Below are positions 5,698-63,300 of a stretch of DNA of 64,000 nt, in pieces. Positions within the stretch are counted from its first letter, which is position 1, and each line of letters opens with the position of its first letter. The notes under the pieces were generated by a model that was not told the origin of the DNA, did no database searches, and saw only the letters and a program-made list of their open reading frames with translations. The position numbers and the translations under genes are program-made. The stretch spans positions 51,150,001 to 51,214,000 of the forward strand of contig NC_042998.1 of the NCBI RefSeq assembly GCF_006345805.1, written 5' to 3'. The DNA is from Octopus sinensis (lineage: Eukaryota).

Positions 5698-6742
5698 GAT
5701 ATGTATGTGTGTATATATATATAATATATATATATATATGAATGGCATCTAAGAAAAAAAGATACGTCTTTCATGCATTGTGTTTGTAATAAATTTAAAT
5801 TTAAAAGCCTATAAAGTATTTTTCTTTATTTTTTTCTTTTAATTCTTAGTGGTTCTTTTGATTGCTGAAAAAATAAAGAAACACATCAGAGCTGCTATAA
5901 TATATGATAATTTTCTGTGACTCATGCAACATTGTGTGTGTGTGTGTGTGTATACATAAGGTATGTTTATATATGTATGTCTTTCTCTATATGTATGTGT
6001 ATATATATGTGTGTGTGCATGCATGTGTGAGTGTTTGTGTGTGTGTTTGCATGTGTGTGTTGACTGTTAAATGAAGAGAATGAATGATTAATAGCAACAA
6101 TTTTTTTCTTTCAAATCCCACAGTGTGACACCTTGAGCAAGTGTCTGCTACTAAAACCACAGGCTGACCAATGCCTTAGAAGTGAATTTGCTAGATGGAA
6201 ACTGTGTGGAAGACCATTGTATACATTGTGTACTGTGTAGTAGAAAGATTGCATCCCAACCACATGGGTCCAGTTTCACTTCCACTGAATGGCAATTTGG
6301 ACAAGCGTCTTCTACTATAAACTCAGGCCAACCAAAGCTTTGTGAATGCATTTAGTGGACAAAAACTGAAAGAAGCCCATTGTATATATATATGTATCTA
6401 TGTGTATGTGTCTTTGTATTTGTGTTTGTCCCCTATTGCTGCTTGACAACCAATGTTGGTGCATTTACGCCCCCATAACTTAGTGGTTTGGAAAAAAAGA
6501 CCAACAGAAGAAGTACCAAACTTGAAAACAAATGTACAGAAAGCTAAAATGATGATTTGATGAGCTGTTACTATATGGACTGATAGTTGAATCCATAGAA
6601 AAATCTTACTATGATAGCTACATGATTCCCTAAATACACATCTCATACTACCTATTTATATATATATACATATATTCGCCATGTTGGAGAACTGAATTCA
6701 ACACATCTTTTTCATTCCCTCTCTATATATTTCTTCTTATTC

Positions 6743-6778
6743 CTTTCTGTTGAAGAGCATAGGCTCGAAACATAAAAG
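6743..6778 (+). ncRNA. Decayed minimal hammerhead in a PLE-like fragment (about 6730-6865)
   Basis: CUUU-CUGUUGA-A-GAGC-AUAG-GCUC-GAAA-CA-UA|AAAG. A homologous copy lies on minus at 12420-12455. Confidence 0.45.
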
Positions 6779-6879
6779 TCTTCTCTATTTTTCCTGAGCG
6801 TCAAACTAATACACTTGCTTGTTGTTCCTACACCTGTCTTCGTCTTTGTTTTTCTATAAATTTGAAATATGTATATATC

Positions 6880-7460
6880 ATCATCATCATCAAAGTATTT
6901 TGATGCTTGGCATTGTTCTTTTTTTTTTATTCAAAAAATTTCAGCCTCTTGAGATTATTCTTCATCATTTCATCCATGACTTCCTTAATCTTCTTCTTCC
7001 ATAGTTTCGATTTACTTACAGCACTTGGTGCTTCATTATTTCAGTACTCAGCATACAGCTGACATCTTCTAGATGTGTCATATGCTTATATCAATAAAGT
7101 ATCTCTTTTGCACACTGCATCCAAATTCCTTTCATAATCAGTTCTCTCAGCTCATATGTGTTCCATCATTCAATGACACTAACAATATGCAACCAGGGAG
7201 CATGCTCATCTCATATCTTTTCAGTCTTTGCAAACTCTTTGCATAGAAACCCACATCTCACTATAATCCTAAATTGCACTTTGTACACAAGGTTCATATA
7301 ATATTTCCTTCACTTGAAAAAAGGAAACCTTTTAACAGAAATAATTGCTCCCTGAACATTCTTCACCTCTTTCTTAATCTAATAACTATAATTTTGGAAC
7401 ATCTTCCTCTAGAACCAAACAGGAGACCAAGGCAACAAAAACTATCAACTACTTCAAGCA
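6880..7460 (-). mobile_element. Decayed RTE LINE 3' part
   Basis: LEVVDSFCCLG motif at about 7425-7460 on minus and a (GAT)n tail near 6880. Confidence 0.55.
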
Positions 7461-33091: not shown

Positions 33092-34355
33092 CTCTATAAA
33101 GATGAAAGGTAAAGCTGATCATGTCAGTATTTGAACTGATAACATAAAGAGCCAGAACCGTATACTGCAAGGCATTTTTGTTTGAAGCACTAGTAATTCT
33201 ACCAATTCACCTCCACTGTCCTTATTCTGTGTTATTTATTGAATGGAATTCTTTGTCAGACATATATGTCGTTTGGACTCTATTATCTTTGCAAATCATT
33301 TTTAACCCTTTCTCTTAATTGCTTGTATGAATTTCTCTTGACCTTTTCAGCTGTAATTAGTCATTTTGTGGGCTAAATCAATATTAATGACCACATTCTT
33401 TAAAGTCTTCATTGTCTGTTTCTTTAGAGTAAGGAAAAAACCTATAAACATTATTTTTTTTTTGTTTCATTTTTAACATAATGCCTCATGCATTGTAAAC
33501 AGCCACAACAATCTTCAATTATTGTTATTTCCTTTTTTTTTTTTACCTTTTTTGGAAAAGTTTATGAAAGCAGCAGAATAATAAATTATTGCCAAACTAA
33601 AGTATTTATCAGATTTAAAACATATACTTCATTCAGCTAAGTGATAGCTTATTAAATCTATAGTAAACATGAAATGGAAAGGATCAAGAAGAGTCAATTG
33701 TTGTGCATTCACAAGAAAACAGATCAGTGATATGAGGTGAAAATGACTAAGCCAGATGAATGCCATACTGGTAAGAATGAGAAAGTAAACATTATTGTAT
33801 CAAGCGCATACACACATAGTTTAACAAACAACCTTGTGTGTGTGTGTGTGTGTGTGTATGTGTGTATGTGTGTGTATAGTGAGGAAGAGAAAGGGATGTG
33901 AAAGGGAATATGAGAAAGATCTAAGAACTGAACTAGAATCAATAAAGAATGATTTTGTAGACCAACAAAAGATCCTCACCTACCCAATAATAAAACTTAA
34001 TGGCCAAATAGCAACAATAAAAATATAAATGTAATGTAAACAGATATGCACATCAATATTGTTAGGGAAAAAATAAAAATCTAAATAATATATACAATAT
34101 ATACAGAAGCCACAGTAGTTATAAAAGAAAGTGTGAATTCCCTGAAGATTATCAAAAACCAAGGAAGCAGTTTGGGAAACAAGTCCTTATTTAATCAATA
34201 AGGATTATAGAAAAATATACAAAATAGAGACAAATGCTATAGAAATATAAAATAACCAATACATATACATACACGTGCACACACACACACACGTGCACAT
34301 ACATGCATACATAAATATATACATATTCATACATATGTGTGTGTGTGTGTGTGTG

Positions 34356-34790
34356 ATGAAGGTCACGGAGAGGGCCATAACTCAACTAATTAGGGAGAGA
34401 GTCTGCTTAGATGAGATGCAGTTCGGTTTTGTGCCAGGTAGAAGCACCACTGATGCTATATTCTTCGTGTGGCAACTGCACGAGAAATACCTAGCCAAAG
34501 ATAAACCCCTATACTTGGCTTTTGTGGACTTGGAGAAAGCCATTGACAGGGTCCTCCAATCCCTTATCTGGTGGGCAATATGGAAACTGGGGATTGACGA
34601 ATGGTTAAGGGCTGTACAAGCCCTATACAGAGATGCTATTAGTAAGGGTAGGGTTAGCAATGAGTATAGTGAAGAATTCCGGGTAGAAGTAAGGGTCCAC
34701 CAAGGATCATCCCTCAGTTCCCTTTTATTCATCATAGTCCTCCAGGCAATAAAAGAGGAATTCAAGACAGGTTGCCCCTGGGAGCTCTTT
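34356..34790 (+). mobile_element. RTE-clade LINE reverse-transcriptase fragment
   Basis: QFGFVPGRSTTDAIF...LAFVDLEKAIDRV...VHQGSSLSSLLF. Confidence 0.9.
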
Positions 34791-35410
34791 GCGTTCTGAG
34801 TTCAAATTTCACCAAGGTCAACTGAACCATTCATTCTTTCAGGGTCAATAAAGTAAGTACCAGTTGAGCACTGAAGTCAGTCTAATCAACTTACCCCCCA
34901 CCCTCAAAATTGTTGGCCTTGTGTCAAAGTTTGAAACCAATAATATTGGTTTCAAATTTAGGTACAAAGCCAGCAGTCTTGATGGGAGAAGCTACATCGA
35001 CCCCAGTACTCAACTGGTACTTATTTTTCAACCCTGAAAGGATGAAAGGCAAAGTTGACCTCATGGAATTTGAACACAGAATGTAAAGTTGGATGAGATG
35101 CCACTAAGCATTACACCCAGCGTGCTAACGATCCTGCCAGCTTGCACCTTTGAAACCAATAATAGACAGGATAAATAAACACCAGAAAAGTACCTGAGAA
35201 AACCCAAACTCATTTCCAGAATAACAGTAGGGATACTGTAAGGTCTCATATGGTTGTTAAGATCAATTACTCAATAAGTGAAAGCAATGGAATGAGAAAA
35301 AAGAGTCTGAACATAGCAGAGATTGACAACCAGAAAAATATTCCGGCACGTGTGGAAACATTAGCCATTAGTAAGAAAGCACCAGTAATAAACAGACATA
35401 TCACGTGTAT

Positions 35411-44127: not shown

Positions 44128-44372
44128 AGGAGGCAGTCAGAAATTTGGATAATTCTTTATTATTAGCACTTTTGTTTGTTTAAACGAACTCTTCACGATA
44201 AGAATTAAAATCAAAATTATAACAATAAAAATAGAACGTTTCCTTCTTTTATTATGTTATGTTTCTTGCTTTGTTCTTTTATGGATGTTTTTTGCTTTGT
44301 TTAGATGAGAAGAAAATATTTTTGTTGTTTTTATTTTGGAGAAAGGGAGGAAAAGCAAAGAGGGGGAGAAAT

Positions 44373-44418
<46 letters not shown>

Positions 44419-45489
44419 TAGTCTCTTTTCAATTACATTGTTTTGGAGACAAGAGAGGAAAAAGATAAAAATCACGTTATTAAAATTGGAACTACATTCA
44501 GAAATAACAGTAACAGTGTAATATAAATGTTTCCTCTTCAATTATCATCATTACTGTTAATTAAGAAAATAGTAAAATGACCGTGGACACTCTGACTGAT
44601 GAAATCCTCTTACAAAACAGTAGATACTAGCCAAAAATTTTCAAAAAACACCTCACAGGGGCAAAATTCACATCAGAGAATGAATCAGAATTCTCCATAA
44701 AAGAATGTAGAGATAGCAGATGTGGAACATGCAATAACAACAACAGCATCAAATATTTAGAAAGTGGTTCCTACATAAAGTTTAAGAGCGTATTCTCATT
44801 CAAAGTAAATGCAGATATTAACTGCAAAACACAGAATCTCATATACTGTATTACTTGCCCCAGTTGCAGAGAATTATATTAATGAAACAAACAATTCCCT
44901 TTGCAAGAGTCCACATCCGACAAGAGGAACTACACAAGATTCCACTGAGAAAGCATCTAGAAATATGCGGTGAAGGAAAATTCAAAATCTTCCCTTTTTA
45001 CAAATGTTCAAGAGATGACCCAAAGTTCTAAACAGGAATGGAGCTACATTTCATCAAAAAATTCTCTCCAAAATTAAATGTTTGAAAGAGAAGCCAAGGA
45101 ACTATGTTTTGCCAAATGGACTAGAAATGAAACAGAGACAATATGCATTAACACCCCTTCAAATGAAACAAACTATGAACACCGCAAATACTGTGCCCAG
45201 CTAATACGACTGCAGAGAAATAATGCAAATGAATGCTCTAATGAATGTTATATTGCTGTCTGACAATATTCACATACCATGCAGGGTGACATTAATATAT
45301 GCTAGATAGCTTTGGTGTCCACCAAGAGAGCTTCTTCATGGCAAAAAACAAATAAAAAAACGTCACATAACAGAACAAGGAAACTCTGATTTTATTGTTA
45401 TCATTTTGATTTTAATTCTTATCTTGAGTTCGTTTAACAGAACAAAAGCGCTAATAATAAAGAATTATTCAAAATTCTGACTGCTTCCT
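44128..45489 (+). mobile_element. 5'-truncated Penelope-like retroelement (Neptune-like) with degenerate GIY-YIG endonuclease and inverted pLTR
   Basis: About 44640-45085 translates (with breaks) to KECRDSRCGTC...INCKTQNLIYCITCPSCRELY..ETNNSL...HLEICG...ELHFIKKFSPKLN. Segment 44128-44262 is an inverted copy of 45360-45489, and both contain a decayed hammerhead. Confidence 0.8.
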
Positions 45490-45525: not shown

Positions 45526-46392
45526 CAGAGTGTGATGGATAAATTGTCACCATGTTATATTTTTAATTTCATGCATGTGCTTTGTTTGTTTTTGATTTTG
45601 TTGACTATACAGTATAGTAGGGTCAGTTGGACACCGTCTGTAAGAAAAACATTACCATGATTCAATTCTCTCTGCCAGAAATTTGGAAATGATATGCTGT
45701 ACTGCTTGGCATTTGTGCCAGAAGCTCCAATACGAACTGATGGTGAACACACAGAACAACCATTGGCTTGCTGTGTCCCCAAAACATGTACCAAGAGTGA
45801 TAAAAATCAAACATGGCGTGATCACCAGTGATGGCAACATTATTCCTCCATTCATCTTCCTACATGGCCTCAGACTCCACATGGAAGACAACATCAAGTG
45901 CCTGGAGAAAGTAGTGCTGTCTTGGGTCAAGACAGTGGTTGCTAGAAGACTCTATGACTGGCAGCAGGATTCTGCCACCATGCCACACAAGCAGGAGAAC
46001 CCAGTCATGGCTGTCAGACAATTTCTGCGGCTACATCACATCTAACATCTGGCTACCTAACTCCTCAGACTGCAACCCTCTTGATTATGTGTGGGGTGCA
46101 ATTGCGTGAGAGACCAACAAAACTCCTTATAACACCAAAGATGAACTGAAGGCAAGGATCATGGCAGCATTCACCAATTTAAACAAAGGAAACCATCCAG
46201 AAGAATTGTAGGAGATTCCAAAGTTGTCTGGAGGTCATGGTTGAAACCAATGGCAGTTTTATTGAATAAATTTACTCTTTAGTATTTCAAGATATCTTTA
46301 TGTAATTTGGGTAAATGTATCAGCTAAAATGAGATATCAGTGTTATTTTCATTTTTGCGTAATTTAGATGACAATATATTCACCACATCTTG
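45526..46392 (+). mobile_element. maT/ITmD37D internally deleted transposon (copy 3)
   Basis: TA-CAGAGTGTGATGGATAAATTGTCAC ... TGACAATATATTCACCACATCTTG-TA. QQDSA and SSDCNPLDY motifs, frameshifted. Confidence 0.85.
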
Positions 46393-46410
46393 TATATATA
46401 TATATATATA

Positions 46411-47268
46411 ATTCATAAATAAGGGCAAAGGAAAAGAATTCTAATGCCAAATATGCCGAAAAATTGGACATATTGTCCATTAACCAAATAATTTTTTCAC
46501 AAAACGCATGCTACTCGAAAAGAGGTTGACAGAAATTTCTAAAAAATTCCATTATTACCATATCGGACCGATTTCAGAGTTAGCTACTAAGAGCTCTCTC
46601 TTCGTCAGTGATACATGTGGTAAAAGAAATAAATGAGATACTTACTCACACCCATGGAAGAAGCAAATACTAAGTCATGGGCACAACTAAGTACCCCAAA
46701 TACATCCAAAATAGAAATACTCCAGCCCATTCGAGGCACGTGCGATTTGAACTGAGGCTCTCATAGAGTGAGTTAGTTAGTTCGGAAGTGAACGCTTAAA
46801 TTTATATCAAATTGAGGATAAGATTCTTTTCGGAAAAAAAATTATTTTCTCGAAAAAAATTTTATCACTGGCCAGCATATTAAAAGATACCTTTAAAGGT
46901 TAAATTTATAAACAATTCATAAATGAGGGCAAAGGAAAAGAATTCTAATGCCAAATATGCCGAAAAATTGGACGAGAGGGCTCTTACTAGCTAACTCTGA
47001 AATCGGTCCGATATGGTAATAATGGAATTTTTTAGAAATTTCTGTCAACCTCTTTTCGAGTAGTGTGCGTATTGTGAAAAAATTATATGGTTAATGGACA
47101 ATATGTCCAATTTTTCGGCATATTTGGCATTAGAATTCTTTTCCTTTGCCCTCATTTATGAATTGTTTATAAATTTAACCGTTAAAGGTATCTTTTAATA
47201 TGCTGGCTATTGATAAAATTTTTTTCGAGAAAATAATTTTCTTTCGAAAAGAATCTTATCCTCACATT

Positions 47269-47272
<4 letters not shown>
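46411..47272. mobile_element. Non-coding PLE-related / retrozyme-like insertion: about 1.1 units of a 504-bp repeat (minus) plus an inverted ~300-bp copy (plus)
   Basis: attcataaat.agggcaaagg recurs at 46411 and 46915. Segment 46971-47272 is the reverse complement of 46411-46600 continuing into 46805-46915. It contains a hammerhead and is flanked by (TA)n on both sides. Confidence 0.8.
46555..46614 (-). ncRNA. Minimal type-I hammerhead ribozyme (intact core)
   Basis: Minus strand reads GUAUCA-CUGACGA-AGAG(loop)CUCU-GAAA-UCGG-U-CCGA-UA|UGGUAA. Stems I, II and III all pair. Predicted cut is between 46561 and 46560. Confidence 0.8.
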
Positions 47273-47303
<31 letters not shown>

Positions 47304-47304
<1 letters not shown>

Positions 47305-48040
47305 TTTTCAATGAGTCACAGTGGTAAAGGCTCTATCATGTTTTGGGGTACTTTCTCATACAAAGGAATTAGGGAAATTCAGGTTGCATGGGGGCATCAA
47401 ACAGCAACTGGCTGTTGGCATGTCGGAGCGGGTATCACTCTGGACTGAAGGCCGTCATTTGTGTGGGGAAGGCTGGATTTATCAACAGAATAATGCTACA
47501 ATCCATAAAGCTCATAGGCCAAAGGATTTCTTCAGAACAAAAAACGTTCATCTTTTGAATCATTCTCTATGTTCTCCTGACCTAAACCTCATCTTTGAGG
47601 ATGGATGGCAAAAGACATTTACAAAAGTGGAATGCAATTTGAGACGGCAGGTGCTCTTTGCCAGGCAATCTTCACCGCATGGCATAACATTCTGGACAAC
47701 CTCCTGCAAATGCTTGTGTCAAGTATTCCACAGGGAATTTTTAAAGTTATTTGCAGGAATGGGGGAGCTACTGACTATTGAGTCCCCTTGTTAACTATTT
47801 ATTCATTATTTTCATTTTTATTATTTATCATGGTTTTAAACTTCTGACCAGGCAAAATATTGTTAGTTTTCATACAATGCATATTTTGTGCCTTAAATGT
47901 TAAACATTTGTTTAAGTTTTCATATATGTTTTTCTATTTGCCAATAATGAATCTATAATGAAAAATAGTTAAATGTGTCAGTCTACAAGGAGTTAATTTC
48001 AGCAGCTTTTTCACTGGTCTTAAGATATTGTCCAGCAGTG
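47304..48040 (+). mobile_element. Tc1-like transposon 3' relic
   Basis: WIYQQNNATIH...CSPDLNL motifs in ORF 47321-47794. Ends ...TTGTCCAGCAGTG, like a Tc1 TIR. Confidence 0.7.
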
Positions 48041-62756: not shown

Positions 62757-63065
62757 ACAACTTATAAATAAATGTGAAGGGACAAAATTACATATTTACC
62801 GCTGATGACGAGAAAATTCTTTATGAATTAACTCAGAAATCGGACCAATTCGGTAATAACAGAATTTTTTAGAAATTTCTGTCAGCTTGCTTCGAGACAG
62901 ATGATGAATTAATTATATGTGGTCGTTAACGATTATTTAAAGTCTTTTCTCAGCATGTTAGGCATCGAAATGTTTTTCTTTTGCCATTATTTATAAGTTG
63001 TTTATAAATTTCACCTTAAAAGGTATTTTTTAATATGCTAGCCACTGACAAAATTTTTTGAAATG
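62757..63065 (+). mobile_element. Diverged relative of the 46.4-kb hammerhead element
   Basis: Shares gaattttttagaaatttctgtca and ttgtttataaattt.acc..aaaggtat.ttttaatatgct with 46990-47220. A 15-bp inverted 5' piece (62757-62771) is the reverse complement of 62987-63001. Confidence 0.7.
62796..62856 (+). ncRNA. Minimal type-I hammerhead ribozyme (slightly decayed)
   Basis: UUACCG-CUGAUGA-CGAG..AAUUC/GAAUU..CUCA-GAAA-UCGG-A-CCAA-UU|CGGUAA. Stem I is a perfect 6 bp; stems II and III each have one mismatch. Confidence 0.7.
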
Positions 63066-63300
63066 TTATCTATATTAGATGATATATATAGATATGCATA
63101 CACACACACACACACATATGGTGCTGATGCCAAATAAAAAGCACCCAGTCCACTCTGTAAAGTGGTTGGTCTTAGAAGGTGCATCCAGCACTTGGAGCAA
63201 TCCTCTAGCTTACCAACTGTTCAGCTGATGCTAGCATGAAAGATGGACATTAAATGACGACGATGATGATGATATATATGAGTATGTGTGTGAGTGTATA

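Follow-up and report, generated by a model that had tools for sequence, protein, structure and literature searches.

A dispersed non-coding hammerhead element of 504 nt, inserted as fold-backs and very probably mobilised by Penelope-like elements

The window analysed here is a 64-kb stretch of DNA, placed at G000:C2:51150001-51214000 of a 2.72-Gb animal genome. At 46411-47272 it contains an insert (GC content of the region 0.34) that is one copy of a dispersed, non-coding element with a unit of 504 nt. Arm 1 of the insert (46411-46973, minus strand) is 563 nt long and comprises a single unit, delimited by the period (46411-46914, minus strand), and 59 nt of a second round of the unit (46915-46973, minus strand). 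The 504-bp period proposed in the initial annotation was borne out, with 46397-46469 recurring at 46901-46973; the actual terminal redundancy is the 59 nt of 46915-46973 aligned against 46411-46469 (98% identical). Arm 2 (46974-47272, plus strand) is, as had also been proposed, an inverted copy that starts inside the hammerhead by 5′ truncation, and is 93-96% identical to arm 1. The (TA)n at both ends was confirmed too: one target repeat lies to the left (46393-46410) and a (TA)16 target repeat to the right (47271-47302). Since the ends sit within these repeats, target-site duplications of more than 4 bp are masked. The longest stop-to-stop frame, that of a natural two-unit arm, is 51 codons, with no ORF for a reverse transcriptase (RT) and GIY-YIG endonuclease, in keeping with the non-coding character first ascribed to the insert.

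Positions within the element are counted from the predicted cleavage site, with +1 at 46560. Arm 1 has its 3′ end at about +150 (site A) and arm 2 at about +260 (site B), both of which are fixed sites in the family. The stretch from site A to site B forms a tail on arm 2 of the type seen in Penelope-like elements (PLEs), about 110 nt long (47164-47272, plus strand) and with a long predicted hairpin at about 47211-47265. The two arms had been suggested to join through a GAC microhomology at 46971-46973. The family reads GACGAAGAGAGGG at this point and the window GACGAGAGGG, and the microhomology is not needed, because it would require a 3-nt deletion that is absent from every full-length hammerhead row aligned. 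It is simpler to suppose that the arms meet bluntly at 46973/46974 or overlap by 2 nt (GA).

Other mobile elements lie nearby. A broken, 5′-truncated fold-back PLE of a different family occupies 44128-45489 of the window, with inverted arms at 44128-44235 and 45385-45489, a CECRDSRCGTC-type linker and GIY-YIG C-terminus, and frameshifts at about 44560-45085. The flanks of the insert at 45644-46390 and 47315-47794, which gave no Pfam hit at E 0.01, resemble decayed Tc1/mariner transposase remnants. An RVT_1 fragment of a LINE-like element is found at 34251-34799. A copy of an older subfamily of the element, 74% identical and with a short tail, is present at 62791-63075 (plus strand), its hammerhead at about 62796-62856.

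The hammerhead of arm 1 (46614-46555, minus strand) is a type-I motif consisting of stem I (UAUCA/UGGUA), CUGACGA, a long stem II with an internal loop, GAAA and a self-complementary stem III (AUCG/CGAU). From hammerhead numbering, cleavage is predicted at AUA/U, between the GAUA and UGG at 46561/46560 (minus strand). The intact motif first reported for this position therefore stands in arm 1, whilst the inverted arm holds a remnant only (46974-47022, plus strand), which lacks the stem I 5′ strand and CUGACGA and would be inactive alone. There are no two complete motifs in tandem. With a single intact hammerhead the window copy is unable itself to give a cut-to-cut monomer, so release of a monomer from this locus is impossible; the copy is a dead-end product and not a source.

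Rfam models gave no hammerhead match; the assignment is based on the motif together with covariation. The commonest letter differs between the older and the young subfamily at 0/11 core positions, compared with 10/26 in stem II and 3/10 in stem I. Across 37 distinct sequences 92.5% of cells are paired, and the covariation amounts to three subfamily-level double changes, such that the stems change in compensating pairs and the catalytic core is kept. Two of the five covariation measures, those based on pair counts, were no better than shuffles (197/500 and 272/500), and relatedness among the 37 sequences inflates the remaining ones. The ribozyme motif appears to be under selection, and its cleavage is predicted. 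According to folding predictions, the lowest-energy fold of the monomer is an inactive alternative (-15.7 kcal/mol, against -9.3 kcal/mol for the active form), and two stem III strands pair at -15.9 kcal/mol. This would fit the dimer model described in Cervera 2014 (PMC4209133), where circles were already proposed as more-than-unit templates for PLEs. Compared with shuffles, a natural cut-to-cut monomer has a much more stable predicted fold (z=-8.2). A donor-like GTAAGT (46644-46649, about +417) and an acceptor-like TTTTTTAG (46540-46547, about +21) bracket the hammerhead on the minus strand. An intron between them would remove the hammerhead; no joint matching it was present in contigs assembled from runs presumed to be RNA.

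Searching with the forward arm returned 2784 first-look candidates, the best 40 of which were scored. Exact patterns matched 256 hammerhead 26-mers and 361 end motifs genome-wide. The young copies deviate by about 3% from the column majority and are evenly dispersed, since counts on C1-C6 scale to 259 expected against the 256 found. An older subfamily, about 74% identical and with a unit of about 475 nt, is represented by 1629 candidates. After removal of 33 duplicates, 133 distinct young loci were examined. They were chosen by top BLAST score, by a match to the hammerhead pattern or by a match to the end pattern, and length bias is avoided only in the last of these sets. In four cases (L008, L165, L168 and L256) a young copy shares its (TA)n with an older-subfamily copy, being inserted into it or next to it, and an older-subfamily locus (L175:1463-2802) contains repeated pieces spaced about 625 nt apart. 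A phage collection gave no match to the element. A tRNA or Pol III origin was rejected: ARAGORN finds no tRNA, and the B-box-like GTTCAAATC is missing in the older subfamily. CGGAAGT (46783-46789) and CACGTG (46737-46742), which we take to be ETS-like and E-box-like, respectively, lie shortly beyond site B, on the upstream side of a zone in which 5′ ends pile up. These motifs possibly form an internal promoter, and the ACTTCCG motif is mostly retained in the older subfamily.

Pairs of hammerheads in tandem number 26, at 23 places in the genome, and were found in 10 arms among the 133 loci; at least three hammerheads occur together at only two places. The sequence features of non-LTR retrozymes are thus found at family level, as the initial annotation had suspected. 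The long tandem arrays that it anticipated are absent from the assembly, which may have lost an array through collapse. The family occurs as contigs in four runs presumed to be RNA. A joint in these contigs that goes back 504 nt does no more than span site A, and any tailed copy would produce it. The low cover at 46751-46835 was not counted as evidence.

Copies are not randomly permuted, contrary to what the circular permutation first suggested would have led one to expect. The sense 3′ ends lie instead at one of two fixed positions. Site A is at about +150 and follows TTTATGAAT; site B is at about +260 and follows CACATTTGAT, and BLAST carries it on to +268 through TA-like bases. TA repeats follow 187/203 of the 3′ ends, compared with a background of 10%. 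Fold-backs make up 84 of the 133 loci. Their ends were A/B in 65 cases by script and in seven more by eye (L008, L012, L033, L044, L051, L062 and L075), B/B in one (L073) and A/A in none, with one end unreadable in the remaining 11. One end of each kind is therefore present in 72/73 fold-backs with both ends readable (p=8e-21), and the window copy obeys the same rule. When 23 loci were added later, all 13 clear fold-backs were A/B by eye. The 49 single-arm copies divide almost equally between A (24) and B (23), with two trimmed; hidden short second arms were found in only a few of the 49. Inner junctions are variable; the gap has a median of 0, and most junctions show an overlap of 0-5 nt or short filler. 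A possible collision of the B arm with site A was considered because six ends fall within +136 to +141 (p=0.004, post hoc); in a 30-nt window p=0.14, and this is a lead only.

The near-strict A/B pairing suggests that the two starts are coupled, and both arms of a fold-back probably derive from one RNA. In L1 twin priming, a single RNA is target-primed twice, which yields an inverted 5′ part and a microhomology join. Two starts on one RNA would likewise serve here. However, the second L1 start is variable and its arms do not overlap, whereas this family has two fixed starts and widely overlapping arms.

The PLE-type insertion proposed in the initial annotation is upheld by the fold-backs, the two fixed 3′ ends and the (TA)n bias. 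A partial tandem together with an inverted 5′-truncated copy, two start sites and a microsatellite bias are traits of PLE insertion, and the anatomy of the insert is that of a PLE footprint with a longer tail (about 110 nt, as opposed to the 30-40 nt reported). Craig 2021 (PMC8557442) describes partial tandems, inverted truncated copies and (TA)n bias for PLEs, along with a tail of 30-40 bp that is often at one end only. Frangieh 2024 (PMC11167929) reports two internal start sites for the PLE RT, a predicted dimer; these sites delimit the tail, and both strands are extended. Non-autonomous derivatives of PLEs are also known (PMC8557442, PMC6765202). We are highly confident that the present family is a non-autonomous element mobilised by a PLE.

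The nature of the RNA template is less certain. Arms cross the predicted cut site freely (66/72 in the length-unbiased set; overall, 101 pass and six stop), which argues against cut linear RNA as the main template. A pile-up of 5′ ends at the cut, apparent by eye, was rejected as not significant, the rate ratio being 1.0 for the unbiased set and p=0.06 for the interval +1 to +6. The template of more than unit length that had been postulated is supported by 17/108 arms in the unbiased set that exceed 504 nt, the longest reaching 1950 nt or 3.9 units. A constant stop rate of 0.0044 per nt would let 11% survive each further unit, which is near the observed counts of pairs and triples; together with the lack of an assembled long array, this is as expected from an endless template. 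Rare variants (in no more than three loci) are shared at 3.3 per 1000 sites in register and 2.2-3.0 one unit apart, against 0.09 between loci, so that sharing is about 25-35x more frequent among segments of the same locus than among those of different loci; this comparison left out seven duplicated or nested loci. With more loci sharing is equal (0.076 in register, 0.077 one unit apart), a comparison that also dropped L012, L018 and L021 and in which only 7-8 locus-private shared sites remain. On balance we lean towards a circle as the main template. Several observations count against it. A single master locus, or gene conversion at a later stage, could produce the shared variants. The predicted monomer fold is inactive, and in Li 2026 (bioRxiv 10.64898/2026.07.22.740005) cleavage was seen in only 1/9 tested dimers. 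According to Frangieh 2024 (PMC11167929), insertion in vitro needs no hammerhead cleavage, uncut RNA is the dominant substrate and the start site is the same for both strands.

The strongest alternative, though a distinctly less probable one, retains the same element and the same PLE twin priming but takes as template a linear uncut multimer, or read-through from tandem source loci, with the hammerhead merely trimming transcripts occasionally. PAc inserts from unprocessed RNA in vitro (PMC11167929). The 5′ ends of the family pile up at +402 to +421 (46644-46663, minus strand; 21 against 8.5 expected, found by scanning), a zone that could be the edge of a hairpin or a transcription start upstream of an uncut hammerhead; its resemblance to the latter suggests that some templates may be linear and uncut. 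Moreover, L012 carries a 28-nt deletion in units 1 and 3, and not in unit 2, an alternation that a simple monomer circle does not explain and a linear multimer could. A homogeneous tandem source would likewise give equal sharing of variants. However, just two assembled places have three or more hammerheads to act as such a source, and evenly dispersed copies suffice to account for the total in the genome (256, against 259 expected). It can also be argued that daughters would be no longer than a linear source and that an upstream promoter would be lost in each round. Finally, no shared 5′ flank carried from a source locus was seen among 476 flanks.

An improbable second alternative is that arms of more than one unit are made from linear monomer RNA by repeated template jumps or re-entry of the RT, or by later duplication or conversion of the DNA. 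Later duplication is evident at L005, L025 and L078, L021 has near-identical units and L012 mosaic variants, and there are six ends at +3 to +5 (2.7 expected in +1 to +6, p=0.06). Against this, junctions at the cut site are exact in nearly all copies, and redundant segments usually differ from each other like the two arms do (34-37 against 33 per 1000), which makes them as old as the insertion.

It is very improbable that the copies are 5′-truncated pLTR ends of an autonomous PLE outside those sampled (42 loci examined, from the best 150 of 5029 GIY-YIG candidates scored), for although their anatomy matches PLE ends, arms longer than 504 nt re-enter the unit and never coding sequence, which largely refutes this reading, no PLE protein match abuts a copy and no coding flank is shared. 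No examined copy is attached as a pLTR to an RT-coding PLE, so the outcome that the initial annotation had named as fatal to its own proposal did not arise. By blastn and nhmmer, the 42 PLE loci have no sequence in common with the unit, host duplication aside, and the 476 family flanks have in common only simple repeats, other short repeats and duplications. The sole PLE flanked by family copies (L213) was rejected as a parent because those copies belong to a tandem duplication of host DNA. This duplication (L213:1-1066 and 5934-7001) is 5.9 kb long, is bounded by a young PLE and was possibly PLE-mediated.

Potential partners are present in the same genome in the form of intact RT and GIY-YIG ORFs of 775-781 aa with a CxxC-type linker, and one of these PLE families also ends in (TA)n at two positions. 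A young PLE family (L207 and L211-L213, on G000 C3, C6, C19 and C1; 98-99% identical) has a 479-aa upstream ORF followed by a 781-aa RT/GIY-YIG ORF, a two-ORF arrangement not generally known from canonical PLEs; it also carries a hammerhead-like motif whose core is altered (TTGATAA...GAAACATG).

The explanation that we marginally favour overall is that the element is a non-LTR retrozyme, and that a borrowed Penelope-like RT/endonuclease, the likely reason for two fixed 3′ ends in (TA)n, primes one RNA twice, this RNA being somewhat more probably a circle than linear. Rare tandem copies with two hammerheads would be transcribed, the ribozymes, dimerised through their self-complementary stem III, would cut, and ligation of the monomer would follow. 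By analogy with PAc biochemistry, the PLE protein, probably a dimer, would then cut both strands of a (TA)n site, and reverse transcription would begin at two internal sites, about +150 and about +260. As the copies show, the two cDNAs are of variable length, run through the cut site and often exceed one unit; they are joined head to head by 0-5 nt of overlap or short filler, with a tail on one arm only. About one in ten copies would gain two hammerheads and could feed the cycle. More tentatively, a dimeric PLE enzyme may hold one ribozyme-made circle at two fixed sites, prime both (TA)n strands at once and roll around it. If so, every fold-back would consist of one tailed and one tail-less arm, and genomic footprints would link retrozyme circles directly to target-primed reverse transcription by PLEs.

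The non-LTR retrozymes are an already known class, of which this family is a new member. As in metazoan non-LTR retrozymes (Cervera and de la Pena 2020, PMC7229834; Li 2026), the unit is non-coding, low in GC and some hundreds of nt long, it contains a single type-I hammerhead, copies range from monomers to multimers, and PLEs inhabit the same genomes; mobilisation by PLEs via circular RNA has been proposed for them. The unit of 504 nt is larger than the 170-400 nt of PMC7229834 and within the 51-972 of Li 2026. In contrast to the arrays described in those accounts, the present family consists mostly of dispersed fold-backs, and it has documented PLE-type fixed start sites. Circles have been shown for metazoan retrozymes, whereas here they are proposed. 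No homologous pLTR was found among the loci examined here, unlike the 24/57 Xenopus families that were matched to known elements (Li 2026). With endonuclease PLEs (Poseidon PAc, PMC11167929; Neptune/Naiad, PMC8557442) the family shares the partial tandem, the inverted 5′-truncated copy, the tail at one end, two internal RT start sites and the (TA)n bias, and with PLE hammerheads (PMC4209133) the long helix II and palindromic helix III. It differs from those PLEs in having no ORF, a tail of about 110 rather than 30-40 nt, and a near-strict pairing of tailed and tail-less arms that is counted here. Non-autonomous Chlamys elements such as MRC1 (PMC8557442) are likewise PLE derivatives with pLTRs and head-to-tail multicopy insertions; they are from a green alga, however, and resemble their autonomous partners at the 3′ end, and most Chlamys elements are without canonical hammerheads.

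The literature covered contains no description of the family or of the one-of-each rule; the family may be catalogued in Dfam, Repbase or paper supplements, which lay outside its scope. As the class is known, the value lies in the mechanism and not in the element. Published accounts, as represented by the papers cited above, pose two questions: what enzyme is responsible for the mobilisation of animal retrozymes, and by what route PLEs come to insert as tandem and inverted copies. The present family offers a short ORF-free template on which the start sites are mapped, a one-of-each rule backed by counts, and intact RT and GIY-YIG candidates in the same genome, which makes both questions testable in vitro with circular versus linear RNA. 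The family is therefore mainly valuable as a clean test system for the mobilisation of retrozymes.
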